Source: Naegleria gruberi (taxonomy: Eukaryota). Taken from it: DNA of 64,000 nucleotides. This document shows, piece after piece, positions 1 through 22,800 of this stretch (positions are counted from its first letter, which is position 1; each line of letters opens with the position of its first letter). The notes beneath the pieces are model-generated. The model searched no databases, was not told the DNA's origin, and saw only the letters and a list, made by a program, of their open reading frames with translations. The DNA is taken from the NCBI GenBank assembly GCA_000004985.1, contig GG738853.1; one strand, 5' to 3'. The translations under genes and the position numbers were made by a program.

Positions 1-404
1 TAACCCAAACCCAAACCCAAACCCAAACCCAAACCCAAACCCAAACCCAAACCCAAACCCAAACCCAAACCCAAACCCAAACCCAAACCCAAACCCAAAC
101 CCAAACCCAAACCCAAACCCAAACCCAAACCCAAACCCAAACCCAAACCCAAACCCAAACCCAAACCCAAACCCAAACCCAACCCAAACCCAAACCCAAA
201 CCCAAACCCAAACCCAAACCCAAACCCAAACCCAAACCCAAACCCAAACCCAAACCCAAACCCAAACCCAAACCCAAACCAAAACCCAAACCCAAACCCA
301 AACCCAAACCCAAACCCAAACCCAAACCCAAACCCAAACCCAAACCCAAACCCAAACCCAAACCCAAACCCAAACCAAACCCCCAAACCCCAAACCACCT
401 AACC
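1..404. repeat. Terminal telomere tract, (CCCAAA)n on the + strand = (TTTGGG)n G-strand. About 65 near-perfect hexamers, degenerating at 370-404 (CCAAAC, CCCCAAA, CCACCTAACC variants).
   Basis: Direct reading of the sequence. The unit AAACCC repeats without interruption from position 1. The C-rich strand reads 5'->3' into the sequence, which is the orientation expected for a left chromosome end. Confidence 0.9.
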
Positions 405-486
405 TTTTTATTTATATTTGAATGACATATATGAAATTCAGATACTCAATATTGGCCGTTCGTTAGTCGTCGATGGGTTTTCGTCT

Positions 487-509
487 AACCCAAACCCAAA
501 CCCAACCCA
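487..509. repeat. Interstitial telomere-like block (AACCCAAACCCAAACCCAACCCA) at a subtelomeric unit boundary.
   Basis: It is preceded by a conserved junction motif TATTGGCCGTTCGTT...GGTTTTCG. The same motif recurs at 2216-2255. Confidence 0.8.
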
Positions 510-962
510 TTCAAATATCATAATATTTTATATCATTCGATTGGAAATGATGAGTAGAACAACGTAGTATATTTAGTTTTTCAATTTATAAAATATTAAC
601 TTTGTAAATAATGTCAGATTAAAATTTCATAAATGAAACCATATGAAGAATGATAATTTAAAAATCCTTTAATGAGATTATATAGTATATATCATCGTTA
701 ACAACATTCATAATCACTTTCATATAAAATTTCAAAAGTTCATCTCTGTAGGTATAAAAGTATAGAGGGAAAAGGGAAGTTGTGAGGTAAAATAGGTCAA
801 CTATAACTTTTGAGTTTCTCATCAAAACATATTGAAACCTGATATGAAAATGTTCCATTTGATGAGTAAACATCGAATATCAAATTTATTTTAACTTTCA
901 TATTTAAAGATTTCTTCCCTCAACCATCATGGTCAACTAGGGATGAAAAGGATGAAATCTTG

Positions 963-2156
963 AAAAAGGACCNNNNNNNNNNNNNNNNNNNNNNNNNNNN
1001 NNNNNNNNNNNNNNNNNNNNNNNNNNNNNNNNNNNNNNNNNNNNNNNNNNNNNNNNNNNNNNNNNNNNNNNNNNNNNNNNNNNNNNNNNNNNNNNNNNNN
1101 NNNNNNNNNNNNNNNNNNNNNNNNNNNNNNNNNNNNNNNNNNNNNNNNNNNNNNNNNNNNNNNNNNNNNNNNNNNNNNNNNNNNNNNNNNNNNNNNNNNN
1201 NNNNNNNNNNNNNNNNNNNNNNNNNNNNNNNNNNNNNNNNNNNNNNNNNNNNNNNNNNNNNNNNNNNNNNNNNNNNNNNNNNNNNNNNNNNNNNNNNNNN
1301 NNNNNNNNNNNNNNNNNNNNNNNNNNNNNNNNNNNNNNNNNNNNNNNNNNNNNNNNNNNNNNNNNNNNNNNNNNNNNNNNNNNNNNNNNNNNNNNNNNNN
1401 NNNNNNNNNNNNNNNNNNNNNNNNNNNNNNNNNNNNNNNNNNNNNNNNNNNNNNNNNNNNNNNNNNNNNNNNNNNNNNNNNNNNNNNNNNNNNNNNNNNN
1501 NNNNNNNNNNNNNNNNNNNNNNNNNNNNNNNNNNNNNNNNNNNNNNNNNNNNNNNNNNNNNNNNNNNNNNNNNNNNNNNNNNNNNNNNNNNNNNNNNNNN
1601 NNNNNNNNNNNNNNNNNNNNNNNNNNNNNNNNNNNNNNNNNNNNNNNNNNNNNNNNNNNNNNNNNNNNNNNNNNNNNNNNNNNNNNNNNNNNNNNNNNNN
1701 NNNNNNNNNNNNNNNNNNNNNNNNNNNNNNNNNNNNNNNNNNNNNNNNNNNNNNNNNNNNNNNNNNNNNNNNNNNNNNNNNNNNNNNNNNNNNNNNNNNN
1801 NNNNNNNNNNNNNNNNNNNNNNNNNNNNNNNNNNNNNNNNNNNNNNNNNNNNNNNNNNNNNNNNNNNNNNNNNNNNNNNNNNNNNNNNNNNNNNNNNNNN
1901 NNNNNNNNNNNNNNNNNNNNNNNNNNNNNNNNNNNNNNNNNNNNNNNNNNNNNNNNNNNNNNNNNNNNNNNNNNNNNNNNNNNNNNNNNNNNNNNNNNNN
2001 NNNNNNNNNNNNNNNNNNNNNNNNNNNNNNNNNNNNNNNNNNNNNNNNNNNNNNNNNNNNNNNNNNNNNNNNNNNNNNNNNNNNNNNNNNNNNNNNNNNN
2101 NNNNNNNNNNNNNNNNNNNNNNNNNNNNNNNNNNNNNNNNNNNNNNNNNNNNNNNN
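963..2156. other. Assembly/scaffold gap (1,194 N).
   Basis: Uninterrupted run of n. The ORF-track entry 960..2240 is an artefact of translating N. Confidence 0.99.
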
Positions 2157-2255
2157 GTATTACAGAATAGATATATTAATGTATTTAATAATACATATAT
2201 AAGAACTGGATATCCAATATTAGCCGTTCGTTTTATGTGATTAGGTTTTCGCCAT

Positions 2256-2281
2256 ACCCAAACCCAAACCCAAACTCAACC
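2256..2281. repeat. Interstitial telomere-like block (ACCCAAACCCAAACCCAAACTCAACC) at a subtelomeric unit boundary.
   Basis: Same context as 487-509 (TATTAGCCGTTCGTT...GGTTTTCGCCAT). Confidence 0.8.
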
Positions 2282-5200
2282 ACAAGAATTTTTCTAAACC
2301 CAACCTTCAAACCCTAGCCCAAAATTATAAACTTATTCAAATATCATAAAATTTTATATCATTCGATTGTAAATGATGAGTAGAACAACGTAGTATATTT
2401 AGTTTTTCAATTTATAAAATATTAACTTTGTAAATAATGTCAGATTAAAATTTGTAAAATGATACCATAGGAAGAAAGTTAATTTCAAAATCCTTTAATG
2501 AGATTATATAGTCAATATCATCATTAACAACATTCATAATCACTCTCATATCTAATTTCAAAAGTTCAAGTTTGTAGACACAAGAGTATGAAGTGAAAAG
2601 GGAAGTTGTGAGGTAAAAGAGGTCAACTATAACTTTTGAGTTTCTCATCAAAACATATTGAATCCTAATATGAAAATGTTCCATTTGATGAGTAAACATC
2701 GAATATCAAATTTATTTTAACTTTCATATTTAAAGATTTCTTCCCTCAATCACACATGGTCTACTATGATGAAAAGGATGAAATCTTGAAAAAGGACCAC
2801 CTATTGAAACTTTACCAAAATGATGTACATGATCTATAATGATATAGAATTCAATTTCATGTCCTAATAATCAGAAATGGTATCATGGGAAGGTATATGT
2901 TGATATTTTTTGGTTGACTTTAGAGAAAGACAAGTCAGACCAACTCTATCAAATACATAACCAACAATATATACATAAAAATGCTCCATTCGATGAGTAC
3001 AGATAGAATATAAAGTTTATTTTCACTTTTATATTCAGGATTTCAACTCTAACATGCCATCTGATAAACAATGAACACGGATGAATTTCTGGAAAATGAC
3101 CACTTTATGAAACTTTACCATCATGTTATACATCTCTACTAATGTATATGGTTCAATTTTCAGACAGTTTGGTGAACATTCTATCTTTCAATAAGGCAAA
3201 GGGTGAAATTTCAAGGTTGTCTTGGAAGATCAGGAGGAAATCTTGAATATAGAGAACCACATCCTCAATCTACTAAATACATATCAATCGATTGGAAATC
3301 GATAGTACATCTCGAAAATATCATTTATTTTATGTTTTGAAATCTCTCCTTTACCTCTTTTGGTCAATTAAGACAATTAAGGATGAGACTATAGGAAAAG
3401 TTACCAATCTCAAAATAAATGATAATATCGTGTTCCACATCTCAAATAAAGTGGACTTTCTTCAAATTATATATTTTCATTTCAAGAAATGTATCCAGTA
3501 GATAGTACATGGTGATTTGTCAGGTGGATTGATAGAATCTGAAAGGTACAGAAACAACTCCATTTTCAATGAAATTGATACCATGACATGTAGACACACT
3601 AATTAGCATATTATATCAATTTCATAAATATTGGTTCAGTAGATGTCGAGTTGTCAACTCTATCATTTTACTATAGAACTTTGACATCAAATTAAAGCTT
3701 ATGCTCCAACTCGCTCATTATACATACAATCAATCTAGAATTGATATCACATAAATTATACATCAATTATATATACTGTATATAGTTTGGAAACAATTAG
3801 TATTACTTTCAATTAGTGAGTCAGTAAATGTTCAATGTCAATAGTGATTATATCCAAGTGTACACTCTATCTCAATGAATGTACATCCTATCATCGTGTA
3901 ACTTTACCATGGACGTTTAAACACACTGTTATACATATGGTATCAATTTTAGTCTGTTAGAATTGAATTAAGTATGATAATAATAACAGTCTATCACATT
4001 GTCATAATTCAACATATAGAATATACTCCATCTCAGTCAATTTACAAAATATCATACTTGTATCAAATATGAATACACTCCGCTTGATGAGGAGAACAAT
4101 CTGAGAAAGTTTCATATTCATGGCTCAATATCTTTAACTCAACTAAGGTAATCAATTAGGAAGAATCTTAATTCCAAAATTAAATTTTACCATCATATCA
4201 CAATTACTGAATAATGAAATACTTATACAAGAATCATATGATCAATTGTAATGTTCATGTCAATAATCAGTGAAGGTACCATTTCATCAGCCTTAGTGTT
4301 CACATCTCAATATCTAGACAGTCAATGTGACTGAAACTTGATATACAACCTATTTAGATGATATAATGATGACTCTCCATTGTAACATGCATGTGTAATT
4401 GAATGTTGACACTTTTCATATTGTTATATTTATAGAGATGGTATCCAACAGAGTCAGTTCACAATGTTAAATATTGAAACTCATTCTGTATGGTATATTT
4501 GGTGTATAGAGTGGTTTTTTTATTGATTGTAATCAGTTTGAAATAATTTGATGAAATTGACACTGTCTAGTCACCATTACATAACAAATAGACCATAGTT
4601 TACATTCCATCTCAGTCATTTCGACGAGTTATTGATTAATTCCACCACCATTATGTTTCTCATACATTGTAGTACAGTTTATATTTCAAGAGTGATTTCT
4701 GTGTAGATTATTATAATCGAAATACCTTGCAATACCAATAAAACTCAATAGAAGAGTTAATTCATCTCATTTTCAAATAGATTATTCAATATAGAACACA
4801 TCTAGATAGTTTCCAGATCATAAAAGTCAAGATACTATATATGGTCTTTGATTAAATTTAAAAATAGACTGCCGTTAATTACTGGAATATTAATTCAAAG
4901 CTTGATGATAAAGCTGTTGATTGAAATCAAACCGATTATTGAATATTGATCATTGAATTGGTGAATAATCACTCTTGATAATGTTACTTATTCAGATTGC
5001 ATGCAAATCAACCTGATTCAATCTACAAAGGTTGGTAGTTGCACCACTACGTGGCGAAACTACCCATCCACGATCAATCAACATAAGAATCACTTCCATT
5101 CAACTCAATTTGACCGTTATAATCAATAAATCAATGAAATGTTCCTTTATTAGCAATACCTATTCAATCTAACGAGTAGATTCACGTCCCAAACATTTGA

Positions 5201-5376
5201 CTTCTAAAAGTCCATAATTCACAAGTTAGTACTGACCTGACCTTTAAATATCTATCAATACAAGAAATGAAACCATCAAATTTACATCATTAATAGATGA
5301 TAAGAAATATAATCAATGATATGAATCTTCACTAAGTAATCTCTTAAATAACCCAAATAAATCAACTCTGAATCCT

Positions 5377-5393
5377 AACCAAACCCAACCCAC
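5377..5393. repeat. Degenerate interstitial telomere-like block (TAACCAAACCCAACCCAC) at the third unit boundary.
   Basis: It sits where the second unit ends and the third begins (the 5395 sequence matches 2405 and 600). Confidence 0.6.
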
Positions 5394-8300
5394 TTTGTAA
5401 ATAATGTCAGATTAAAATTTCTAAAATGAAACCATAGGAAGAATGATAATTTCAAAATCCTTTAATGAGATTATATAGTATATATCATCATTAACAACAT
5501 TTATAATCACTTTCATATAAAATTTCAAAAGTTCAAGTCTGTAGATATAAAAGTATAGAGGGAAAAGGGAAGTTGTGAGGTACAAGAGGTCAACTATAAC
5601 TTTTGAGTTTCTCATCAAAACATATTGAATCCTAATATGAAAATGTTCCATTTGATGAGTATACGTCGAATATCAAATTTATTTTAACTTTCATATTTAC
5701 AGATTTCTTCCCTCAACCATCATACGGTCAACTATGATGAACAGGATGAAATCTTGAAAAAGGACCACCTATTGAAACTTTACCAAAATGATGTACATGA
5801 TCTATAATGATATAGAATTCAATTTCATGTCCTAATAATCAGAAATGGTATCATGGGAAGGTAAATGTTGATATTTTTTGGTTGACTTTAGAGAAAGACA
5901 AGTCAGACCAACTCTATCAAATACATCACTTCAACCAACAATATATACATGAAAATGCTCCATTCGATGAGTAGAGATAGAATATCAAGTTTATTTTAAC
6001 TTTTATATTCACGATTTCAACTCTAACATGCCATCTGATAAACTATGGACACGGATGAATTTCTGGAAAATGACCACTTTATGAAACTTTACCATCATGT
6101 TATACATCTCTACTAATGTATATGGTTCAATTTTCAGACAGTTTGGTGAACATTCTATCTTTCAATAAGGCAAAGGGTGAAATTTCAAGGTTGTCTTTGG
6201 AAGATCAGGAGGAAATCTTGAATATAGAGAACCAAATCCTCAATCTACAAAATACATATCAATCGATTGGAAATCAATAGTACATCTCGAAAATATCATT
6301 TATTTTATGTTTTGAAATCTCTCCTTGACCTCTTTTAGTCAATTAAGACAATTAAGGATGAGACTATAGGAAAAGTTACCAATCTCAAAATAAATGATAA
6401 TATCGTGTTCCACATCTCAAATAAAGTGGACTTTCTTCAAATTATATATTTTCATTTCAATAAATGCATCCGTTAGATAGTACATGGTGATATTTCAATG
6501 GAATGGATGGAAATCTGAAAGGTACAGAAACAACTCCATTTTCACTTAAATCAATATCATTACATGTAGACGCTCTAATTAGAATATGATATCAATTTCA
6601 TGAATATTGGTTCAGTAGATGTCGACATGTCAACTCTATCAATTTACTATAGACATTTGACATGATATCATAGATTATGCTCCAACTCACTCATTTTACA
6701 TATAATCAGTCTAGAATTAATACCACATAGCCTATACATCAATTAAATACATCTACAATAGTTTAGAAACATTTCAAACTACTTTCATAAAATTAATCAG
6801 TAAATGTTCAATCTCAACACTTTATATATCCTAGTGAACACTCCATATCAGTGAAAGTACATCCAATCATCCTGTAACTTTACCATATACCTTTAATCAC
6901 TCTATTATACATCTGGTATCAATTTCATACAGTTAGAATTGAATTCAGTATGATAATAATAACAATCTTTCAAAATGACACATTTCAATAAAAAGATTAC
7001 ACTCCATCTCAGTCAGTTTACAAAATATCATACTAGTATCAAATATGAATAGACTCCTCTTGATGAGGAGAACAATTTGAGAAAGTTTCATATTCATGGC
7101 TCAGTATCTTCAAGTAAACTAAGTAACCTTAGAATAGACAAGTCAATTAAGTACATCAATTCAACAATTGAAAATTGAAATATAGTATATTTATTACAAA
7201 TTAATAGGACTCTTCTAAATAACTATATCGTTTAAATTAATATTTGTAAAGTTGTCAACACATCATGTCACAGATCATACTCTTTCTCAATGAATAGTTG
7301 ACTAAATCAATTTAAAATGACATACAGTTGTTTATACATAGTATTGTATATGTGGTATCAATATCTTTTAAAATTGTCAAGTATTAAGGAAGATCTAAAA
7401 AAATAAGGTGGTAAAATTGAATAAGTTAGTAAAATGACCTTGAATCGATCACTCGTCACTTAATTGACACTCCAACATACAACCACTGAACCAACAGTGC
7501 TAAAGCTTTAATTTCTAGAAATGATTCGTATGAATAACCAAGGGGTTGTATGACTATTAAGGGAAAATTGTCGGTTTCTATTAAGAACAACAATTAACAA
7601 CAAATAACAACAAGAATTGTATCATTATATGATAATAACAATAATTTATTAAACGATATGGAAGGGAGAAGTTGCTCCCTCACCAAATGATGAGGGGAAG
7701 ATTCAACTTGATGATCAAGAGATGGTACCTCCACCAATCTACTTAAATTATAATATCATTGAAGATTATCCTGATGATCTTGTTGATAAATAGATTCATA
7801 CATCGGAATAGTTTTGGAAGCAGAGTTATTTAGCGTTGTATTTTGATAATCGTAATATTTTAAAGGGTTAAAAATGGAGTTGATTAATGCGATTATCAAA
7901 ATAATGGCTTCAAATCCATGGCTATTAGCATTGCCAACAAGCAAATAACTTGTGGAGTGAGAAACATTACCACTACCTTCTAAATAATATTAATAAATAT
8001 TATTTACTTGTTCCTTAATGATCTTAATGATATCGGAATAAGTGCGCACCGCAATTAAAGGTAGTTTCACACTTGTTCAACACAGCTATTAAGCAATAGA
8101 AAATTAACAAGTTTAACACCAATTCAAATACAAAATGCTCAACAATTACTGAATTAAATGCAAATATCCCAACGTCATTTTGTAGAGAATTAAGTTGAAC
8201 CTATGCGATTTTTCACCGTTTGCCAAATGGTTGCGTATATAGCAAGCCCCCCCAAGAGAACAAAAAACACAGAAATATCGAGGTAAAACGAGTTGATTAT

Positions 8301-8836
8301 CTCCATTATTTGATAGCAACCAATATTAAAATTATATATCAGCATGTAGCCGTGAACATTTCCTATCTAATGATATATATCGATGTATATGAAGTCTTAT
8401 AAATAATGATGTTTTAAGAGCGCAGATTAATATCCAAACCCTTTAACAGATATTAAAAAGACACACATTCCTGGAAGTTATGAAGGTTCAACTGAAGATT
8501 TCCCATCAGAGGAAAGTACAAAATTCAAACCAATTAACAGTTTACGTGAATCCTCTTTAAATGCATCAACTGGATCATCTAGTTATTCAGATCCAATTCA
8601 AAATTATGAAATTCAAGAAAGAATTGGTCAAGGTGCATTCGGAAGTGTGTGCAAAGCAAAAGATTTGAAATCTGGAATAACAAGAGCAGTTAAAGCACTT
8701 AAATATTCCAACAATGAAGATTTGAATTTAATGATGAAAGAAGGAATGCAACTGATGAACATTTCACACTCAAATATTTTAAGAGTGAATGATTTATTTG
8801 TTGGAAATAATCAATTATTATATATTGATATGGATT

Positions 8837-8844
8837 ATTATGAA
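8837..8844. repeat. Left copy of the target-site duplication ATTATGAA.
   Basis: It is identical to the 8-mer at 9547-9554, immediately outside the TIRs. Confidence 0.75.
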
Positions 8845-9546
8845 TAGACGGTGGGCAGTACCCTGTATTCGTTGTTCCAACCAAATTTTTTAGAGTCGAG
8901 CCAATTTTATAAATATTTTAATATTATTTATTCTTCTGATGATATTTCGTCGCCACTTTATTCATCACTTCCACTTTGTGGATTCTGATGCATCATCTTC
9001 CTCATATTCTGATCCGCTGGTAGTATCGTCTTGGTAAATTCTTGGAAAGCTTTTGGAGTTTATGGTTTGATGGTTGGTATTTCATCATCAACAGGATTTC
9101 CTCTTTTTGTTGCCAATTTCTTGGTTTCTTTGTTGTTGGAGATTTAGATGTAAGAAGAAGATTCCAGTCAAAGAAATTTCCTGATGATGGGTTGTTGTAT
9201 ATATATTCTAGCCAACTGCCATGTTGTTCAGTTGCTTCCAAATACCAGCTTGTGATTGGACATTGTGGCCAGTAGACAAAATCTCTTAATTTTTTTAAAT
9301 TTTAATTTAACGGTTTTTACAACCAAATGTCAAAGCAACGGATCTTCTGTGGCTCGACTTTGAAATTTTTTTGTCTGACCCGGCTCGACTTGTAAAAATT
9401 TTTGTCTGACCCGGCTTGACTTGTAAATTTTTTAGCCTGACCCGGCTCGACTTGGAAATTTCGCAAGTTCTACATAAAATGCCTCTGGCTCGACTTTGAA
9501 ATTTTTACTCCCTGACCCGGCATTTTACATCACTGACCACCGTCTA
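8845..9546. mobile_element. Non-autonomous DNA transposon (MITE-like, hAT-like by its TSD length). It is 702 bp, with perfect 10-bp terminal inverted repeats TAGACGGTGG...CCACCGTCTA (the imperfect match extends to ~14 bp) and a flanking 8-bp direct duplication ATTATGAA.
   Basis: I read the TIRs and the TSD directly from the sequence. Removing 8845-9546 plus one TSD copy joins ...GATTATTATGAA|AATGGAGATTTA..., which encodes DYYENGDL. That is exactly the expected kinase subdomain V sequence, so the insertion site is in a coding exon. The element has no long ORF; ORF 9002..9241 is low-complexity. An internal minisatellite lies at 9351-9521. Confidence 0.75.
9351..9521. repeat. Minisatellite with a ~31-bp unit (GGCTCGACTTGTAAAAATTTTTGTCTGACCC) in about 5 copies, relatively GC-rich, inside the TIR element.
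   Basis: Direct repeats seen at 9351, 9382, 9413, 9444 (diverged) and 9487. Confidence 0.8.
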
Positions 9547-9554
9547 ATTATGAA
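9547..9554. repeat. Right copy of the target-site duplication ATTATGAA.
   Basis: See 8837-8844. Confidence 0.75.
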
Positions 9555-10604
9555 AATGGAGATTTATGTAAACTCATTTACAAACAAACTTCTAATGTTG
9601 CAGAAAAGGTTATTTTCCAAATATTGGAACAATCTTGTAAGGCATTAGATTATGTTCACTCTGAATTGAAAATTATTCACAGAGATGTAAAACCAAGTAA
9701 TATTTATTTTCATCAAATCATATGAGGTTAATGAAAATATTCATGTAATTTTAGCAGATTTTGGTCTTGCCAAACAAACTCAAGGATCAATCAATAACTC
9801 ATACGCTGGCACTCCTCTTTATATGAGTCCTGAATGGACTGGTTTAGGTGCTAAATATTCTTACAATACTGATATTTATTCATTAGGTGTTACAATTTAT
9901 CAAATAATGACTAAGGATTCACAAACTTCCATAAGTCATCTTTATTTAACAATGGATTCTGCAGAAGTGAAAGAGTATTTGAAGAACATGATGAATGAAC
10001 CGGCTGTTTATTCTTCAAAATTGATTGAAATTGTGTTATCAATGTTAGAAAAAGACACTAACAAGAGACCAGCAGCAAAAGACATTCTAAAAACAATAAA
10101 TTAATGAGATAGTTTAATTCTTGTTATGTTTCTATTTATTAGTTATCCTTGATTTTTCATACAACATGAGTCCACAAGTTATTGAATACACCACAAGTTT
10201 GATTAGAAATATAAGGTTGACATCCACTACACACAAATATTTCAGTAACATCATGATATTCAATTCTCCAATTTCCTCCAAAAGTTGCTTGAAACATAAT
10301 TCCCATATTAAACATTTTACCATGTGGAATAAATGATCATGATGACGATTATTCTTGCAACTCATGTGCAATCTTGAACTGCCATCAGTCCCATGTAATT
10401 CCAATAGATCCTTCACCTAGTCCAATAATTGCTCGATTTATGTTTCGTCCATAACCTACGAAAGGTTGAGGTTTGGTAATTTCCTCATTTCTCATAGGTT
10501 CCAATTGATTAATCATGTCTTTGAGAATGTATCTTCCAAATTAATCTGTAAACTTTCACTGCTTATTCCAAGTCCGAGTATTAATGAAGTATGTTCCAAT
10601 GCAA

Positions 10605-11677
10605 TCAAGATAATAAACATCCACCATCAGATTGGAATACTTTGGTATCTTTTTTGACTACCTTTTCTAATAATTCTCTCCTTTTGGTATATTCAGATCC
10701 ATTGAAAAAGTATCCTTTCTCGATAGTTCTATCGACTACAGTTTCAATATTAATATTTTCCTTACTGCTTGTTTCAAATATTTCATAATCCGAACAATCA
10801 TAACTTGTCAAAATTTCAATAACTTTTCCCTTGACTTGTTGCATATTTAGTGTAGAATCAGATTTCAAACGATCGATCTGACTGATGCAAACAGTTATTG
10901 GAACGGATTCATCATCATTAATATTAACTATTGATCTGATTACTCTATCAAAAACATCGAAATATGTTGTATGGCTATTCACAGCAAACAAAACAATGTA
11001 TCCTCTTGCTCCTTTAAGTTTTGCTAATTAATCCGAAATCAAATCGAAACCAAAGGTCAATTAAATAAATATTTACGCCCTACTAACTAACCTTGATCAT
11101 ATAAATAATAATCATGCCTAAAACCACTATCCCAAATTTCCAATTTCAACTGTCTTTGATTGAAATGAATATTCCTACGAAATGTTTCATCAATTGGATG
11201 ATCATATTCAGCAATAAATCGATCGTACAAGTATCTATAGATGAAGCAATGAATTCCAGAACCACCAGGACCAGTAATGCAAAGCTTGAACTTATTTTCA
11301 TTGGCTTTATGATGTGGCTCCTTTTCTTTCCTTCTCCTTTCAGCTTCATGCAAAATAGCAAACATTCTCTTGTAGGACTTTTTGGATAATTTCTTTATAG
11401 TTTCTTCCTTTTTATGCCAGTGATTCCACTGACAAACTGGACTGACTATTTCCTTTCCATCCTTTATTTCGGAACGTACGTGAATATATGAATACAAGAT
11501 AATTGACCAATACTTTTCCAAAAAAGAACGAAGCATGAATTGTTTGGAAATTAATTCTAAATTACACAAGTTTTTAATGTTGGCTTCCAGTCTCACAGAA
11601 GGTTGTGCAGTATTGATGATGTACTCAACAATGTGATGAAGCAACTCGGGAGGAAGATTGGCAAAGTGTGATGACAT
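10605..11677 (-). CDS. F-box-like N-terminus (LPPELLHHIVEYI...) fused to a Ras-superfamily small GTPase (G1 GPGGSG, G3 WDSG, G5 ETSSK) that ends in a CaaX prenylation box (CLLS). It has two exons with an intron at ~11024-11090 (GTTAGT...TAATTAG).
   Basis: ORFs 11087..11677 and 10605..10991 are in the same orientation, separated by a GT-AG intron that restores the frame. The Ras-like motifs and the terminal C-L-L-S were read from the translation. Confidence 0.7.
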
Positions 11678-11705
11678 TTTTTAAAATGTGATGAATTCAT
11701 CAAAT

Positions 11706-13541
11706 TCACTGTTCCTCCTGTTCTTGCATTGTTCTTTTCCAGTTGCTGATGGTTTCTTGAATAGACTTGTTACTAATTTTCAAACGTTCCACTACATCAA
11801 TCATATTTTGCATGCATTGGAATTTAATTTCATCAAAGAGAGTGTTGGGAATAAGGGAAGGATCGTTAGATTGATTCAATACAAGTTCAATAGATTCATA
11901 ACGTTGTCTAATGTTAGAGATGTTCAATTCGAGTGAGCTTCCTGTTTTGAGATAGGTATTTAGTATTCTAGAGGCAACCTTCGTTTTGTGACGTTTTGGC
12001 ATTATTTTGAATTTTTCAATATCTCTGAATGCAAGAATGTCCTCAGTGCAATAACTTCTTCTTGCAAAATCAAGTATAATAACGAACGTCTTTCTATTCT
12101 TGAGCAGCATTTCAATTTCTGTTTCTGCGTATGAGTGTTGATGTTGCCAATCGTGGTAAATTGAGTATAGAACAGCCATATCTACTGATATGAATATTTC
12201 AATTAAAGAATAAATCAATAAAGTAAAACCGAACGGAATGAAGTAGTCAGTTAAGAATCTCACAATTTCAATTTGTCCACTCACTAGATAAGCTATGGCT
12301 TGGATGATTTGAATGATAATTAGAAGGATTGTTTCTCTCTTAATCAACCAAGTATCTCTATCAGCAAAAAATAGCAAAATAGCAAATGCAATTTCAATAA
12401 TAATGTAAAAAGCAGCCTCTCCAGCAAGTATGAAAATAGTATTACTCGTAGTGACGCATCCTGAATCAAAAGCAAACATGCTTACATTCCAAATGAACAT
12501 TCTCTTTCCACTTGAAGAAAATGATGCTTCATCTGCTCCTCCAAGTATTGCCCAAATAGCAAGATGAATGAAAAACGCAATAATATAAACTATTCCAATA
12601 AACTTGTAGCTCACTAGAAAGGAAAATATTTTGAATTTTCTTTCATCTAGAATTGAGTCTGTGAAATCGTCCTCAGCCGAGGTAATCCAAGTTTGAGAAT
12701 CGTTTTCAGAATCATCTCTTCTCATGTCCTTAATTTCAGCTATAATTGAAGAGTCTTCAGGAGGTGTCAATTCCAAGTTGATAGCTGTTGTATTTTGTTC
12801 GTCCGTAGTTCCTGAGCTTTTTTCATCAAATGAAACTGCTTTCTTATCCACCAAAGAGAGAGAGGAGCCAACAGTTGGTATTGTTGATGTAGATGAGAAT
12901 TTGTGTTTGGGGTCATTAATCTTACTCGATTTTTTAGACTTGTCTCTTGTTGAAGAGTTTGCTTTTTGGTCAAAGACCTTAGACTTTTCCAAATTGAGCT
13001 TGTACATAAAATAAATTCTAATGCACCTAAACACTGTCGGTAGGCAAATTGCAGGTGCAATTACAAAAAAAGAGATGGTATACAAAAAACATGGCATGAG
13101 CTTTCTTCCAATAGCGTATCTCAAACATGTGGTCATTACAAAGAATAAACTTGCAATGATCGTTAGAATCAAGTAAAGGGGATTTCTTGCCTTCACATAG
13201 CTTGAATTTCTCTTCCAAATAACACCAATAATCCCAAAACCAACAAATAGGAGATAGACAAATATGAAAATACCAGAAAATATTGGTGTGAAAATACTAT
13301 CTGGACAAATATTGTTCACCACAGTTGCGTTATATCCCTCTCTACTCAAATCTCCCAATTTAAACAATCTAGGATCGCATATTGAAGAATAACTACTATT
13401 CGTTGAAGAGTTGGTTTCCATAACATCAAGAAACAATAGCAATGAGTCAGAATCATTCTGCAGTGGAAAAGTTACAATGTTGCTCGGTATTAACCTATCA
13501 AAAATCAAAGGGAGTAAAATCTCAATTACTTCCACTAACAT
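11706..13541 (-). CDS. Seven-transmembrane protein with a C-terminal RGS (regulator of G-protein signalling) domain. This GPCR-RGS fusion architecture is as in plant RGS1.
   Basis: The 611-aa ORF has about 7 hydrophobic helices in two clusters. Its C-terminal ~130 aa match the RGS fold pattern (FARRSYCTEDILAFRDIEKFK ... ILNTYLKTGSSLELNISN ... LFDEIKFQCMQNMIDVVERL). The central loop is Ser/Asp-rich. Confidence 0.65.
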   Translation of the reverse strand: MLVEVIEILLPLIFDRLIPSNIVTFPLQNDSDSLLLFLDVMETNSSTNSSYSSICDPRLFKLGDLSREGYNATVVNNICPDSIFTPIFSGIFIFVYLLFVGFGIIGVIWKRNSSYVKARNPLYLILTIIASLFFVMTTCLRYAIGRKLMPCFLYTISFFVIAPAICLPTVFRCIRIYFMYKLNLEKSKVFDQKANSSTRDKSKKSSKINDPKHKFSSTSTIPTVGSSLSLVDKKAVSFDEKSSGTTDEQNTTAINLELTPPEDSSIIAEIKDMRRDDSENDSQTWITSAEDDFTDSILDERKFKIFSFLVSYKFIGIVYIIAFFIHLAIWAILGGADEASFSSSGKRMFIWNVSMFAFDSGCVTTSNTIFILAGEAAFYIIIEIAFAILLFFADRDTWLIKRETILLIIIQIIQAIAYLVSGQIEIVRFLTDYFIPFGFTLLIYSLIEIFISVDMAVLYSIYHDWQHQHSYAETEIEMLLKNRKTFVIILDFARRSYCTEDILAFRDIEKFKIMPKRHKTKVASRILNTYLKTGSSLELNISNIRQRYESIELVLNQSNDPSLIPNTLFDEIKFQCMQNMIDVVERLKISNKSIQETISNWKRTMQEQEEQ

Positions 13542-16860: not shown

Positions 16861-19800
16861 TCAAAAAAATAAACTCGTCATCACAACAACCAATGCCAAT
16901 AACAAGAAATTCACAGCAAACAACCTATTGCCACCACCAATTAAACTTGTGTGCTTCTTTGGAGATGTACTCACTGGTGGATTAGTACTTGATTGTGGAG
17001 TTGTCTCTGCAGTCAAATCAACAGCAAATTTAGTTGTATGATCACAGGCACACGTAACAACAGAATTGTCATAATCGATACTTGCTAGTTTACATCCTGA
17101 TGAACTCCACATCAATTTTTGTTCATCATAATATTTACATACAAGTTGTTTTTGCATGGCTGATTTACTAACCAAAACCTTCAATGTGAATTTTAGTTGA
17201 ATTGGTTTTGTAAGATTGGTTAATGCTAGAGCTTGTCCAGAACTGTAAAACTTGAGGTCCACCTGGTCAGAAACAAGATTTGTCATAGCTCTACGTCTTG
17301 ATGATGTCTTGTAGGAATATTTAACAAGACTGATGGCTGCCATTGATGAAGAATCCTTATAAATGGAAGAAATGTCAGTGGAAATGTCATCATAGACAAA
17401 GGTTGTTCCTCCTGATGATTTTAACACACTTGATATGTTAAATGATGAAACAGAAATGTTAAAAGATGAAGATTGAATATGGAGACTTGTCAAAGCTGAT
17501 GTGTTGGTTTCCACTGGATTGATGCTCATTACAAGGACAGAAGCAATGTTAGAAATTAAACTTTCGGCCTTACTTTCTGAACCATATTCATAAATATTAG
17601 AAATGATACTGACAGTAGATTGTGTTTCTTCAGTGGAAAGTTTGACTTGGGTTGAACCATTTTGTAACTTTTGGGACATGTCTGTGAGGAATGAGTCAAG
17701 CTTGGTAGAGACACTTTCCAGAGCTGTCTTGTCAACAGTTGGTGATGAAGTAACAGTTTCAAATATCTTTAAAACTTGTTGAGAATTATTGGTGTCAATG
17801 GAAAGAGTATTCACTAATTGTGTACTAACAAGTGATGAACTTGATTCATCGTAGAAGGCAACAATCTTTTCTTCACTTGACAATGAGCTGATTCTTGTAG
17901 AAAGCTCTTGACTTGTACCAGAGAATGCACTAATAATAACACTTCCACCTCTCAGCGTGTTGACATTTCCAGTGGAATCTTTTACAAACATCACTAATGG
18001 AATTGAGGATTGCTTGGTGAAGGGCAGTATTGTAGTGGCGTTTGGATACTGAGAATATTTTGTCAAGACAATATTTTCGTCCTTACTATTCACAAATCCG
18101 AATGCATATTGAAGTGGTGATATCTTTGAAGAGGCCAACCATGGTTTAGAGGAGAGTGTAAATGTTTGTGTGAGAGCAAAGCCGCTTGTTGGACTAATTG
18201 TGAAATTATTCTCAGATGCGTACGCTTTCGTCTGACCTTCCAGATAGAAACTACAATCCTCATTTGTATAACCACTATCACATTGACAATTGTTTTGATT
18301 TACACAAATTCCATTACCTGAACAAGATTTCGTCGAGTTGTACACAATTCCAAAACAAGAATGATCAGTGACTCTAGTTATTGGTCCTCTGGTTTCTACA
18401 ATAAGTTCTTGAATAGCTCTAAAACGATGTGCTTCAGAAACATCTTGATATTGATATTCCAACAAATGCCAAGAACCATATTTTGAAGGGAAGCCAACAT
18501 TTGCATAGTGACAATTTTCAACCAAGCTCAAATTAGCATACATTCTGTAGTACTTTTTGTAAATATCATACATTTTGATATCTCTATTCATGGCAATATA
18601 CTTATCTGTGGCTCCTGAGGTTTCATATCCACTGGCAATGGCCGAATATTCAGCTACAGAACTACCACTTTCATACATTCCTAGTGTAATATTATAGGAT
18701 TTTGCAACTTGAAGCTGCTGTTCAAGCATTGATTTAGTGGAAGCAAATTCATCATCACACTTTTTGAAAAGTGTATTCAAATCGGAAATGGCAACCAAAG
18801 TTCCTGAAGATTCCAAGCCACATCCGAAATAACCTGTCACTGTTAGCATAATATTGGAATGAGATTTGTAAAGATCTTGATAAGATAATATTCTAGTAGA
18901 AGTTATCGGCATAAGAGTAAAGGAAGCTGCAACAAGAGTCAATCTATTGCTTTCACTACCGAATACACTCTTCCAAATAGTAATAATTTCTTTAGAACGT
19001 TTTGAATAGAACAAGTTTCTTGCTGCCAAGGAGTCTTTAGATAATCCCAATAATTTTCCTTGCTCTTCACAATATTTACCACTATCAAAGAGTGTATTCC
19101 ATGCTTCGTTGGTGTATTCAAGATAAATTTGTACATCATTTCTCAGAGTTTGTTTAGCTAGGAGGGCAAATTGTCTGATATATTCATCGTTGGCACCATA
19201 AGGAATTGTAAACCACGGATTAGCTTTGAGAATATTACATAATTGAATCATGTATTCGTGAGCAACACCTCTTCCCATTGGTAAAGTAGATGGTGTAATT
19301 CTATCTTCCCATGTAATAATTCCTTTTTCCATAGTCCATGGCATGAATCTAATGGTCTTGAAATTTTCCAATCTCTTTAAAAAGAGTGGATGGAATGGAT
19401 TATCTTGATAGGTATTTTCAAAACCATCCATTACAATTCTTATATTTCTGATAGGATTATTTGGATTGGTTTCTTTAATTTTCATAAAGACACCATTGTC
19501 ACGAACAAGGGAAAGTGTGACTTTAATTTTCATATATCCTTTCTGGTTATTCTCAATAATTGTAGAATCGAATCCAAAGTCTAATTGACCATTTCCTTCA
19601 TAGAAAACATGGTAGATTCCTCCTGGCCATTTCTGTTGGATATCTCTCAACATTAGAGTTACTAATTGCTTTCCTTGTGCAATACTAGCTGGATAGCCAT
19701 CTGATCTTAGTTTGATTTCATTATTATAACTCCAAATATATATGCTATTCATTCCTTCCAAATCTTGGAGAATCCAAGCCCTGGCTTGTTTCATCAAATC

Positions 19801-22800
19801 AACAAAGGTCCATTGAGGAGAATAATCTACAACGCTATTCACATTCACACCAAGTTTTGATCCATCATTTGGTGAATTTGCCTTGATGGTACAGCTACTT
19901 CGTGAGTCCATTCTATATCCACTATGACATGCACAAGTACTGTTAAGGCAAATACCATTTGCACATCCCAGAGAAGGACACTTCAAACAGGCTCTACTTG
20001 TTGGATATTTCTTACAATCGATTTCACATTTTCCATTCACAAATGAGTAGCCGTAATCACAGACACAGTTTGTGGAATTGGTAGCACAATAACCAACTCC
20101 ATTACAATTACAATCAATGGAACAATCACTTCCTGTAAAACCTCTATAACAACTACACTTGTTATAATCAATACAGTTTCCATTATAGTTACATTTTGAA
20201 TCACAAGTAAATAAGGTGCATCCATAGCCGTAATATCCAGTTTGGCAGTGACATGTATAGACTGCATAAAATCCTTCTGTATGATTGAAAAGACAATTAC
20301 CTTTTCCTCCACATTGATATGTGCATCTGTAACTGTTAATATAATTGATTATCTCACAATTGGTTCCATTGTAGCCAAAGAAACAGTGGCAAGAGTCTCT
20401 GGAATCTGACAAGGCATTTGCAGCACAAACACCATGATTATTGCAGTTATCTTTACAAGTGGATGGCTTTTCATTCCAATTACAAACACTCATTGAATCT
20501 ATATAGTTTTGATAGGCAACATATTTTGGAGAAGATGAGGATGATAAGTCAGAATCTGATGATTCAATCAATCCCCAACATCCGTACTTGGAAAAGACAG
20601 ATGTGGATGTAAAATGATTGTAGGCACTTAGTTTAACTCCTGGTGCAATATTAGTTATGTTGGAGAGGTAGTATGTAAGGGCTTGTTTCATTCTTGGGTC
20701 TCTGTGAATGGTCATTGATAAATCTGTCAATTCTGTATTACCAGTATCAGTCAAAGATGAAAAATCTGGTCCACCTTCATAGAAAGCAAGTTCCATTCCA
20801 GGAGAGGATTGATTTACAATCTTGTATGTGCTTAAAAGAGCATTTCTGGAACTTGCAATGGCTGTATGAATAATAGATCCATAGAATTCCTCAAGACTGA
20901 CCAGGGAATTATCTGCCTTCTTCAAACTATCGCTCATATATGGAGCAATGGCCACAACATTGAAAGATTGATAGTAATTTCCTTCGCACAAGTAGAAAAT
21001 CTCCAAAGGGCCAGTCCAAGCTGCTTGAGCAGCAAATACCAATTTGATTCTCCTGTGATGTGATGCTCCAAACACTCCTCTGATAATATCTGCATATCTC
21101 TTGGCAGTCTTGATGTGATAACAGATTCTAGCAACTTCATAAGAACTGTAATAGTTTTGAAGTTTGGTCAATTTCATTCCTTCAATAACTCCCATTTGTT
21201 GAGCGTAACTTCCACAAGCACCTGAGGCCCAACATTCATTGCCAATTTCAATGTAGGCAGTAACATCTGGTCTGAGATAATCTCTCACATAGGTTGCCCA
21301 ATTTTCAATATATCTATCAGTGGCTCTGTGAGGTAAATTGAACCATGGATTATTTCCAAGCATATTACACAAGAGCACTTGCATTTCCATACTTACTCCT
21401 GTTTTTAGTCTGAAGGTGTAATAGGAATTGAGAGTTCTATTCTCCCAATCATAGTCTTTATCGACACCAATATTAGACCAAGGCATAAATCTAATAATTT
21501 GGTACTTTTTCAATTGTTCCAAAAAGAGAGGATGGAATGGGAAATCTTCATAGGTTTGCTCATATTTAGCCTCAAATATTCTCACATTTCTGATGGGATT
21601 CAATGGATTGGTTCTCAAAATCTTGTAAAAGACACCATTATTCATTTCAGTCTTGTGATTGTATTGGAGTTCAATTCTACCTGCATCTCTTCTCAATATT
21701 TTCTGATCTTCAAACTGGAATTCTAAAACGCCATCACCATCATAGAGGCAAATATACTTTCCATTTGGGAAGTGAGCTGCCACATCACGAACTGCAAAAG
21801 TTGCTACATTTTTAGTTATCTCCAAATATTGAGGATATCCATTTTCATCCAGTGGTACACTTTCTTGGTCATCCTCTGCCCATCCAGTACCATAGACAAA
21901 TTTCTGGACAATCCACTTTCTGGCTCTTCTTTGAATATCTATGAAAGTTACTTCTCGAGACCAATCTGCCAAACCATCAATATTGACGCCAAATTTGGTT
22001 GTATTGGAGGCACAATCTTGATATTTTGGAACTGTTATGTTACAATTTGCTCCAGAAAAACCATCAAAGCAGTGGCATGATCCATTATGGCAAACACCAT
22101 ACTTACAATCAGTACATGGTAAACGAATAGGTTTTGGAATATCGTCTGATGTGAATGGAAGACTACCATTTCCTCCTTCCAACCAAGTAAGCACAGCTCG
22201 GTATTTTGGTACAGTTTGTGGATCCTGTAGAAGACTTTCCATCACTGCTTGATAGCCACATCTACCACCTCCTCCCAAGCATCTATCTATCTTTTCCACA
22301 ATATTATTCAGAATCATTAATCCACCTCCCATTCTATGCCAACGTTTCATTACATCAACAACCATATCCTCAACAATTGGTTGTCTGAGAGCCTCAATGG
22401 AAATATCCTCTAGTCTTTGTTCCAATGGTGCTAGATCTGTCTTTTTCCATCTATTTGCCCAACCAGGTGCATGAATTCTCAAGCCTGCATCGTATAGTAT
22501 TAATGGAATTTTCAATTTGAAAGCAACTCTATTTAACAAATAGATCCAATCTATTTCGTCCTTGTAAATTTCTTGTCTGAGTAAATTGAGAACATCATCT
22601 ACTGTGTAATTGACTGAAAGGTTGACATCATAACCATTTCCATAATACTCTATACCAGTACCAACATTTCCACTCACTGCAAAAGCATCAAATAAGCTCA
22701 AGTCATCACTTGAATAGAGTGATAATACACTGTCGTAATAGGCAGGTATCATTGTAGAGAGGATATACTTGCATCGAGTATCATTCAGACCGAATACTGC

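Follow-up and report, generated by a model that had tools for sequence, protein, structure and literature searches.

The left edge of the window, a 64,000-nucleotide stretch of Naegleria gruberi contig GG738853.1 (assembly GCA_000004985.1), is laid out as a chromosome end: inward from the edge come a (TTTGGG)n telomere tract, a 90-bp spacer termed element X, and at least three head-to-tail, non-coding units of ~3 kb, in a repeat domain of ~8 kb. Within each unit, a proximal tail that varies is followed outward by a conserved 1.7-kb core and a 95-bp segment L, and a short telomere-like tract forms the distal border. We consider this probably a genuine N. gruberi chromosome end whose units were stacked by telomere-primed recombination or break-induced replication (BIR), leaving fossil telomeres at the joints. 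The central reading of an earlier note on this DNA, that a (TTTGGG)n telomere sits on a non-coding subtelomeric repeat with telomere-like blocks at the unit joints, stands. The features of the region are as follows.

1-396, + strand: terminal telomere tract (TRF, pattern matches, sequence read).
397-486, + strand: element X, 90 bp of non-telomeric sequence that separates block 1 from the terminal tract (alignment, BLAST).
487-509, + strand: interstitial block 1, with the sequence AACCCAAACCCAAACCCAACCCA, marking the distal joint of unit A (score 21, exact matches).
510-972, + strand: unit A, truncated by the assembly gap and consisting of segment L (510-600) and 373 bp from the start of the core (BLAST, identity matrix).
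973-2156, no strand: assembly gap, 1184 N (sequence).
2157-2255, + strand: element X', a second X copy, non-telomeric up to the contig edge (BLAST, alignment).
2256-2329, + strand: interstitial block 2 (scores up to 23 across 2236-2335).
2330-4147, + strand: unit B, consisting of segment L (2330-2424) and the 1.72-kb core (2425-4147) (BLAST, nhmmer, autocorrelation).
4148-5376, + strand: alpha tail of unit B (found once in the window).
5377-5393, + strand: degenerate interstitial block 3, with the sequence TAACCAAACCCAACCCA, between units B and C (score 13, alignment).
5392-7123, + strand: unit C core (BLAST, nhmmer, identity matrix).
7124-8444, + strand: beta tail of unit C, the inner edge of the repeat domain (homology to contig VFQN01031297.1).

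The terminal tract has the sequence properties of a telomerase-type telomere. TRF reports a period-6 array at 2-396 with 65.7 copies of CCCAAA and 96% matches, and CCCAAACCCAAA with at most one mismatch occurs 67 times in the window, 61 of them inside the tract, against a chance expectation of 0.47 per window. The array is long and G/T-rich, lies at the very end of the sequence, and has the correct polarity: the + strand carries (CCCAAA)n, as a left chromosome end should, so the G-strand (TTTGGG)n lies on the - strand and runs 5' to 3' toward the end. Variant repeats pile up at the proximal end of the tract (366-403, which reads CCCAAACCAAACCCCCAAACCCCAAACCACCTAACC), and with the proximal 30-40 nt degenerate, the imperfect repeats are concentrated on the centromere-proximal side. 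TTTGGG was named as a candidate N. gruberi telomere repeat, inferred from the same public genome assembly, in a 2013 survey (Fulneckova 2013, PMC3622300); where that survey treats this organism, it states that information on N. gruberi telomeres had been lacking until then and names the motif alone, with subtelomeric architecture not described in that part of its text. The earlier note had taken the hexamer, combined with "dictyostelid-like" genes, to be taxonomically informative. The organism is a heterolobosean, and a 100% match to an N. gruberi aminoacylase accords with that assignment, so the dictyostelid link falls away; what survives of the remark is a motif that had been published earlier as the N. 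gruberi candidate.

The tract does not meet the array at a block, as had been proposed, because it stops at 396 and is followed by 90 bp of non-telomeric sequence before block 1 begins. With X intervening at 397-486, there is no seamless, "phased" junction between tract and seed of the sort described for Sultan elements. X has a second copy in X': 409-483 aligns to 2174-2251 with a score of 55 (shuffled null 21 ± 4), and BLAST gives 75% identity over 81 nt. Inside X lies a GC-richer motif, TATTGGCCGTTCGTT...GGTTTTCG, found at 450-483 and 2217-2252 only. A search for X upstream of the remaining joints yielded no significant alignment, and a pattern scan of viral contigs with the X motif yielded no match. 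The "conserved junction" said to precede each block holds at two of the three blocks and is absent upstream of 5377. The outer borders of the two copies are also not equivalent: on the distal side of the point where the X alignment starts, X' has a further 17 non-telomeric nt (2157-2173), whereas the terminal copy has just 397-408 between that point and the telomere tract. We infer that telomere addition at this end took place at X or beside it, not at a boundary block.

It is conceivable, although improbable, that X-CCCAAA(3-4)-L forms a conserved cis-acting module at every Naegleria end, marking where ends are rebuilt. For such a module, both copies of X lie directly distal to a block, and the GC-rich motif of X has been kept in otherwise AT-rich DNA; against it, plain duplication would also give two 75%-identical copies in one scaffold. 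The module could act through templated BIR from the boundary blocks or through directed de novo telomere addition. If it existed, Naegleria ends would be routinely maintained or reset by a recombination-based, ALT-like route besides telomerase.

The units lie head-to-tail directly internal to the telomere with a tandem period of 2967-2976 bp, of which one full period is sequenced, unit A being partial. The cores of units B (2425-4147) and C (5392-7123) are 91% identical over 1733 nt by BLAST; unit A matches unit B at 92.5% (509-972 with 2335-2798), and its core part matches 5392-5766 at 94.4%. Segment L, ~95 bp long, is found in units A and B and is missing at the third joint. Beyond the core end, the sequence differs in every copy. 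The alpha tail has no further BLAST match within the window, and its local alignments with the beta tail and with the tail in VFQN01031297.1 score at null level. Because 4148-5391 is single in the window and unrelated to the sequence that follows unit C, the "3-kb tandem repeat" of the earlier note amounts to one sequenced period plus partial copies; the period and the common 1.7-kb core hold, but the tails are unrelated.

Two ~310-bp sub-repeats per unit, as previously noted, are seen by nhmmer in both B and C, lying next to each other at 2610-2919 and 2923-3222 in unit B and at 5577-5887 and 5891-6196 in unit C. Unit B has a third, very diverged copy at ~3265-3400 (E-values for the three unit B copies, 4e-90, 4e-84, and 0.002). 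Autocorrelation singles out a lag of 303-305 (z 6.5). A regular ~310-330 bp periodicity through the whole core was considered and rejected, the lag of 327 reaching a z of 4.5-4.7 where the strongest lag in a control coding region reaches 5.0. As only the 303-305 lag stands out, we limit the claim to two sub-repeats and one very diverged third copy. Identity between sub-repeats is 63-64% within a unit versus 95.5-98.7% between units, indicating that the whole unit was what became amplified; the ~310-bp duplication inside the core is old.

The same joint is found at a second locus. A pattern scan of metagenome contigs with a core 22-mer returned one match, VFQN01031297.1 (assembly GCA_006365155.1), a 2.6-kb contig from another public assembly that carries the same core at 94-97% identity; the 22-mer gave no match in genome contigs or viral contigs, and a 28-mer invariant in all copies gave none in genome contigs. 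In VFQN01031297.1, telomere-like blocks at 1131-1220 (score 13) lie right before the unit start, and the implied period is ~2956 bp. The core, the joint block, and the matching period together suggest that the core-bearing unit is a multi-locus family. This outside copy has a different tail and joint. The beta tail of unit C is colinear and homologous with the tail between two units in the outside contig, 7420-7756 being 73% identical to 85-411 and 8048-8444 aligning to 694-1118 with a score of 156 (null 83 ± 10). By this homology, the repeat domain reaches ~8444, past the 7140 at which it had been thought to end. The last letters of the beta tail are CCAAACCCTTT, a stretch that does not reach significance by itself.

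Telomere-like blocks are confined to unit joints, and each of the three joints in the window has one, always in the orientation of the terminal tract (inverted blocks, zero). Blocks 1, 2, and 3 score 21, 23, and 13 for telomere-likeness; the highest score among 21,995 background windows is 11.5. Block 2 starts with a perfect (CCCAAA)3.5 at 2256-2276 and continues as degenerate AAACCCAACC..CAAACCCTAGCCCAAAA; its clear part spans 2256-2281, and the degenerate continuation runs to ~2329. This degenerate part is conserved in VFQN01031297.1 at 1191-1220, suggesting that it was inherited with the unit. Block 3 is accompanied by neither X nor L. Moving inward from the telomere, the blocks decay, from 23 nt that are near-perfect, through 21 perfect nt with a degenerate stretch and 17 degenerate nt, to a 10-nt trace. 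At three or four joints the proximal partner is constant, namely the core with or without L, and the distal partners vary, being X, the alpha tail, or the beta-like tail in VFQN01031297.1. A shared proximal partner with differing distal partners is the pattern predicted by joining through a telomere tract.

Short telomere-like blocks can also be pictured as telomerase-mediated insertions made during the repair of internal double-strand breaks, unrelated to former ends, as proposed for short vertebrate ITSs. The blocks are short, and their 17-26 nt fits the size class of repair-type ITSs. However, they coincide with unit boundaries at all three joints in the window and in VFQN01031297.1, and what flanks them is different modules rather than one interrupted sequence, which makes such an origin very unlikely.

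The arrangement of the joints leads us to favor stacking by recombination through telomere tracts. Each unit may formerly have borne a chromosome terminus or have been copied along with one. A short or eroded telomere would invade the telomere-like tract at another unit boundary, on the sister chromatid or on another chromosome end, and all sequence distal to the invaded tract would be copied by BIR or unequal exchange; alternatively, a healed end might later capture another end. Repeated rounds of such events would produce stacked units with fossil telomere tracts at their joints, and those tracts would decay because renewal by telomerase had been lost. Both the recombination or BIR history and upkeep of the end by telomerase are suggested here by sequence arrangement. 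The model has no place for X other than as the stub of another unit's tail.

The earlier note had instead seen the unit boundaries as preferred sites of telomere healing or recombination, with the present telomere seeded at one of them. In such a scheme, blocks built into the units seed de novo telomere addition, unequal exchange expands the arrays, and healing contracts them. This scheme has been published for the Sultan/Suber elements, where most telomeres run seamlessly from the seed (PMC8287924), and in N. gruberi it could account for a block at every joint in the orientation that telomerase would need and for the conservation of the degenerate part of block 2 in VFQN01031297.1. The sole available terminal junction, however, contradicts seeding of the present telomere at a block, as the tract begins 90 bp distal to the block, beside X. 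Moreover, the sequences that the blocks adjoin on their distal side bear no relation to one another, which simple in-register unequal exchange would not give. We therefore find healing from the blocks doubtful. Causation is more likely reversed, with the blocks being relics of earlier ends or recombination joints, a reading to which their decay with distance from the end points.

The outermost part of the array must be read with the assembly gap in mind. The spacing from unit A to unit B is 1826 bp, which does not fit the period of 2967-2976 bp and casts doubt on the gap size or on the scaffold join. Given that the stated gap size of 1184 is off period, the outermost contig, on the unit A side, could belong to another end or haplotype. 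Contig 1-972 would then have been joined through the repeat by mate pairs, a scenario that we hold to be on the unlikely side but that carries appreciable weight: the join is an N gap, the A-to-B spacing is off period, units A and B are both ordered X-block-L-core, and the copies, at 91-98% identity, are similar enough for mate-pair linking to go astray. On the other hand, the distal junctions of X and X' differ as described above, and gap sizes in draft assemblies are only rough estimates. With blocks 2 and 3 inside one contiguous contig, an artefact of this kind would alter the unit count and leave the kind of structure as it is. Under such a misjoin, the true end would start in the gap upstream of X', and X would be conserved next to the telomere at several ends.

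The units are non-coding, and the earlier view that the repeat holds no convincing protein-coding gene is borne out. The longest open reading frame (ORF) in the repeat domain is 84 aa, and nine ORFs compared with Pfam gave nothing at E<=0.01. Codon changes show the 84-aa ORF to evolve neutrally: differences between copies are mostly non-synonymous, and two copies contain stops; among 5.8 billion proteins, its lone relative is the same ORF on VFQN01031297.1. Searches for tRNA (ARAGORN) and for Rfam families at E<=1 found none in bases 1-12000. VFQN01031297.1 has no tRNA, and its Rfam matches are chance-level miRNA and snoRNA matches far below gathering scores. A tRNA-like stretch picked out by eye on the - strand of the beta tail is supported by neither ARAGORN nor Rfam. 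A reading of X-block-L as a telomerase RNA was rejected, since the 23-26 nt block far exceeds a template, the region occurs in several diverged copies, and Rfam offers no support.

These results bear on whether the unit could be a degenerate, non-autonomous mobile element that targets telomeres, comparable to MoTeR, SART/TRAS, HeT-A/TART, Athena, or telomere-capping Helitrons. If such an element inserted itself into telomere repeats, its copies would come to be separated by telomere tracts, and the copies here do lie head-to-tail in one orientation with telomere repeats in between. MoTeRs are described as forming such arrays (bioRxiv 10.1101/845669), and Paramecium germline ends are described as capped by Helitrons (bioRxiv 10.1101/2025.11.06.686955). 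MoTeR, SART/TRAS, and HeT-A/TART share with the N. gruberi unit the head-to-tail end arrays and the telomere repeats at element junctions; the unit differs from them in having no reverse transcriptase, coding capacity, poly(A), or defined termini. Its ORFs are no longer than 84 aa and have no Pfam match at the above threshold, neither a reverse transcriptase nor a Rep/helicase signature was found, and the longest ORF is neutrally evolving, interrupted by stops in two copies, and without protein relatives other than the VFQN01031297.1 ORF. There is no poly(A), 3' hairpin, TIR, or TSD at 4147, 5376, 7123, or 8444, and the tails are unlike between copies. A mobile-element origin thus appears highly improbable, and recombination among ends remains the reading that we prefer.

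Overall, the N. gruberi end resembles the Y' arrays of Saccharomyces cerevisiae and the Sultan/Suber arrays of Chlamydomonas reinhardtii, where such a layout is already known. In yeast, Y' copies are separated by short telomere-repeat tracts. Y' elements are likewise kilobase-scale units just internal to the telomere in small tandem arrays (0-4 copies; PMC11042809), and short telomeres lead to recombinational amplification of these arrays, as in type I survivors (PMC11042809). Y' elements are 5.2 or 6.7 kb long, ~98% conserved, and carry ORFs (helicase) and an ARS, whereas the N. gruberi unit is ~3 kb and non-coding, with a core 91-97% conserved and unrelated tails, and has no sequence homology to Y'. 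Like the N. gruberi unit, Sultan and Suber elements are non-coding, species-specific tandem units beside the telomere with telomere-like sequence on one border; Suber elements are ~1.5-2.5 kb and have up to ~80 bp of degenerate repeats (PMC8287924). Both are proposed to expand via unequal sister-chromatid exchange or BIR and to contract when an end heals at the seed (PMC8287924). Most Chlamydomonas telomeres are seamless from the seed of the last Sultan, whereas the N. gruberi tract starts 90 bp past the last block; Sultan arrays are built of numerous near-identical copies, whereas the N. gruberi array has few copies with heterogeneous tails; and the telomere motifs differ (CCCTAAAA in Chlamydomonas, CCCAAA in Naegleria).

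The concepts are unchanged by this end: yeast, humans, and green algae are already known to keep telomere remnants where subtelomeric units meet, and parts in healing and recombination have been proposed for such remnants there. The Heterolobosea branch deeply among eukaryotes and have been little studied, and the structure could anchor long-read assemblies and allow Y'- or Sultan-type building of subtelomeres to be tested in Discoba. The repeat, X, and the 1.7-kb core now provide probes with which Naegleria chromosome ends can be counted and mapped.

The left edge of the window is a real chromosome end, as the earlier note recognised. A CCCAAA array occupies bases 1–396 of the + strand (65.7 copies, 96% matches, Tandem Repeats Finder), and a 12-mer scan allowing ≤1 mismatch gave 67 matches in the window versus 0.47 expected by chance. 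The C-rich strand reads 5′ to 3′ inward from the left edge and the G-strand (TTTGGG)n points 5′ to 3′ to the end, which is the orientation at a real telomere. Variant repeats make up the innermost 30–40 nt (...CCCAAACCAAACCCCCAAACCCCAAACCACCTAACC), as is typical of telomere sequence that telomerase has ceased to renew. A published study already names TTTGGG as a candidate telomere motif for N. gruberi (PMC3622300). No description of Naegleria subtelomeres was found in the searchable literature, so that the subtelomeric architecture seems to have gone undescribed in this genus; it adds one more case to a well-known kind. The order of its modules, from BLAST and alignments, is listed from distal to proximal.

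Modules of the repeat domain
1–396, + strand: telomere
397–486: X, a 90-bp non-telomeric element
487–509: block 1, a telomere-like tract
510–972: unit A, L (a ~95-bp segment) plus core (the 1.7-kb part shared by units)
973–2156: gap, 1184 N
2157–2255: X′, the second copy of X
2256–2329: block 2
2330–4147: unit B, L plus core
4148 to about 5376–5391: alpha tail (of unit B)
5377–5393: block 3
5392–7123: unit C core
7124–8444: beta tail (of unit C), then the first genes

The terminal tract had been thought to join the array at a boundary block; the 90 bp of X lie between them. The ~3-kb tandem repeat itself stands, with a period of 2967–2976 bp from aligned copies and 91–95% core identity among the window copies. 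The units are mosaics of a core and a variable tail, and the sequence covers just one full period: the alpha tail is present once, with no similarity to the beta tail detectable by alignment. At the third joint, the 95-bp L is missing as well. Each core opens with an adjacent pair of ~310-bp sub-repeats, as first described (2610–2919 and 2923–3222 in unit B, 5577–5887 and 5891–6196 in unit C; nhmmer E 1e-84 to 1e-93), and a third copy is very diverged (E 0.002 and 0.02). Because sub-repeat identity is 63–64% within a unit versus 95.5–98.7% to the counterparts in other units, the sub-repeat duplication is old and the whole unit was amplified later. A second, ~327-bp periodicity further along the core did not rise above the noise of a control region.

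Every 30-nt window was scored against (CCCAAA)n, with 21,995 windows from both strands of 9–64 kb as background. The three joints score 21, 23, and 13 versus a background maximum of 11.5, and the same scoring found no block of opposite orientation in 397–9000. The telomere-like blocks at the unit joints are thus real and oriented. They become shorter and more degenerate away from the end, from 23 nt near-perfect, through 21 nt perfect followed by ~50 nt degenerate, to 17 nt degenerate; an innermost 10-nt trace (CCAAACCC, 8434–8443) is not significant alone. The junction motif TATTGGCCGTTCGTT...GGTTTTCG, described as conserved, does precede blocks 1 and 2 as part of X (409–483 aligns to 2174–2251, score 55 versus a null of 21 ± 4). 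Block 3 has no such motif upstream, and alignment detects no X motif at the inner edge or before the joint of the outside copy.

This outside copy came from scanning a 22-mer of the sub-repeat over public metagenome-collection contigs, which returned one contig, VFQN01031297.1 (2627 bp, GCA_006365155.1), matched twice at a spacing of 310 bp. L plus core make up its right 1.4 kb, 94–97% identical to the window copies and as close to them as they are to one another; the unit family therefore has more than one locus. The contig opens with the last 60 bp of a preceding core (counterparts at window 4083–4134 and 7059–7118), and the intervening 1.16 kb is colinear with the window's beta tail (85–411 versus window 7420–7756, 73%; 694–1118 versus window 8048–8444, score 156, null 83 ± 10). 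Homology ends at ~8444, where the first gene region begins, which makes copy C a complete unit with a tail reaching beyond 7140, where the repeat domain was previously ended. Just before its second unit the contig carries a telomere-like block (~1131–1175, score 13), which makes such a block at a unit joint recurrent; a second, CAAACCCTAGCCCAAA, is common to block 2 of the window. The implied period is ~2956 bp. For the window's single-copy aminoacylase, the protein search showed no 90%+ orthologue from GCA_006365155.1, and the only other member of the aminoacylase cluster is ENA metagenome protein P0122. This would fit low-level Naegleria DNA from which only multi-copy sequence was assembled, and so hints at a high copy number for the unit. 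The best conservation between the two beta tails is at window 7436–7510 and contig 100–170, minus strand. The resemblance to a decayed tRNA seen there by eye (D-loop-like GGTTCAGTGGT, T-loop-like GATCGATTC) is not supported by ARAGORN or Rfam, which report nothing at this place.

The unit is non-coding, holds no known RNA, and is no recognisable mobile element. The absence of a convincing protein-coding gene, already noted, is borne out: the longest ORF in the repeat domain is 84 aa, has no Pfam match, carries premature stops in two copies, and has lost its ATG in one. Changed codons among its four copies are non-synonymous in 7–17 and synonymous in 1–5 cases, and a search of 5.8 billion proteins brought up a single relative, its own counterpart on VFQN01031297.1. 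ARAGORN and Rfam find no RNA gene in the repeat domain or that contig. That the unit is a degenerate telomere-targeting mobile element is unlikely, given no coding capacity above 84 aa, unit ends that lack poly(A), terminal inverted repeats, and target-site duplications, and sequence beyond the core end that differs in all three copies.

Every joint has a constant side, where a unit's distal end (core with or without L) meets a telomere tract, whereas the outward side varies among X, the alpha tail, and a beta-like tail. Joining through telomere repeats characteristically leaves a constant unit end with a variable outward partner, and we infer it to be the most likely origin of the array. An end with a short telomere could have gained sequence copied from a telomere-like tract elsewhere, through break-induced replication or unequal exchange, or a healed end could later have captured another end. 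Each round would leave a buried telomere tract that then decays, and the degeneracy gradient of the blocks fits such decay. Repair-type insertion of telomere repeats is, given this arrangement of the joints, an unlikely source of the blocks. Part of the outer array may be misplaced: given the stated 1184 N, homologous points of A and B are 1826 bp apart versus a period of ~2970 bp, so that either the size given for the gap or the scaffold join is unreliable. The gap may be underestimated by ~1.15 kb, unit A may be the shorter one, or the two parts may have been wrongly joined. Were 1–972 mis-scaffolded from another end or haplotype, the array would be two units and X a recurring telomere-adjacent element, but blocks 2 and 3, both inside one contig, would be untouched. 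The earlier note, whose observation is partly confirmed and whose interpretation is partly supported, had suggested unit boundaries as preferred sites for telomere healing or recombination; the healing idea, an existing hypothesis, may hold for other ends, but the single terminal junction visible here is not at a block and lends it no support.

Joining through telomere repeats has parallels elsewhere. Short TG1–3 tracts lie between yeast Y′ copies. Y′ arrays behave as proposed for the Naegleria units, and recombination amplifies them in type I survivors that lack telomerase (PMC11042809). Chlamydomonas Sultan and Suber elements have a telomere-like border, as the Naegleria units do, and both expansion by unequal exchange or break-induced replication and contraction by healing at the seed have been proposed for them (PMC8287924). 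In C. elegans, according to a preprint, critically short telomeres start DNA synthesis within interstitial telomere tracts (10.1101/2022.09.04.506531).

GC rises from 27–29% in the repeat domain to 33–37% in the gene region, whose first genes (8470–11677) are as follows.

First genes behind the repeat domain
8470–11677 region, + strand: kinase gene, split by an insert
10130–11677, − strand: F-box-like and Ras-family small GTPase gene in several pieces, introns presumed

The first subtelomeric gene appears to harbour a MITE-type non-autonomous DNA transposon, the 702-bp insert (8845–9546) that interrupts the protein-kinase ORF. The insert is flanked by an 8-bp direct duplication (ATTATGAA, 8837–8844 and 9547–9554), has terminal inverted repeats (TAGACGGTGGGCAGT / ACTGACCACCGTCTA), and contains 31-bp tandem repeats (9351–9461); the ORF joined across it gives a continuous Pkinase match (profile 1–132, E 9e-26). 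An 8-bp duplication is hAT-like.

The genes had been called dictyostelid-like. The M20 peptidase ORF at 49792–51237 is 100% identical to "aminoacylase [Naegleria gruberi]" (EFC47661.1 / XP_002680405.1), located on a 695,587-bp scaffold, and after it the nearest relatives are Naegleria paralogues, N. lovaniensis, and Willaertia. This makes the window the end of a draft-genome scaffold of N. gruberi (Heterolobosea) and not of a dictyostelid. Eukaryotic signalling proteins (PAS-cyclase, DNA-PKcs, teneurin-like EGF/NHL proteins, and an RGS protein) are encoded by its ORFs. Several long, apparently intron-poor ORFs lie <60 kb from the telomere (16861–23829, 36170–39094, 42514–47844, and 51921–56819), their products being teneurin-like EGF/NHL/GPS surface proteins, a TPR-PAS-adenylate/guanylate cyclase, and a DNA-PKcs-like PI3K-related kinase.
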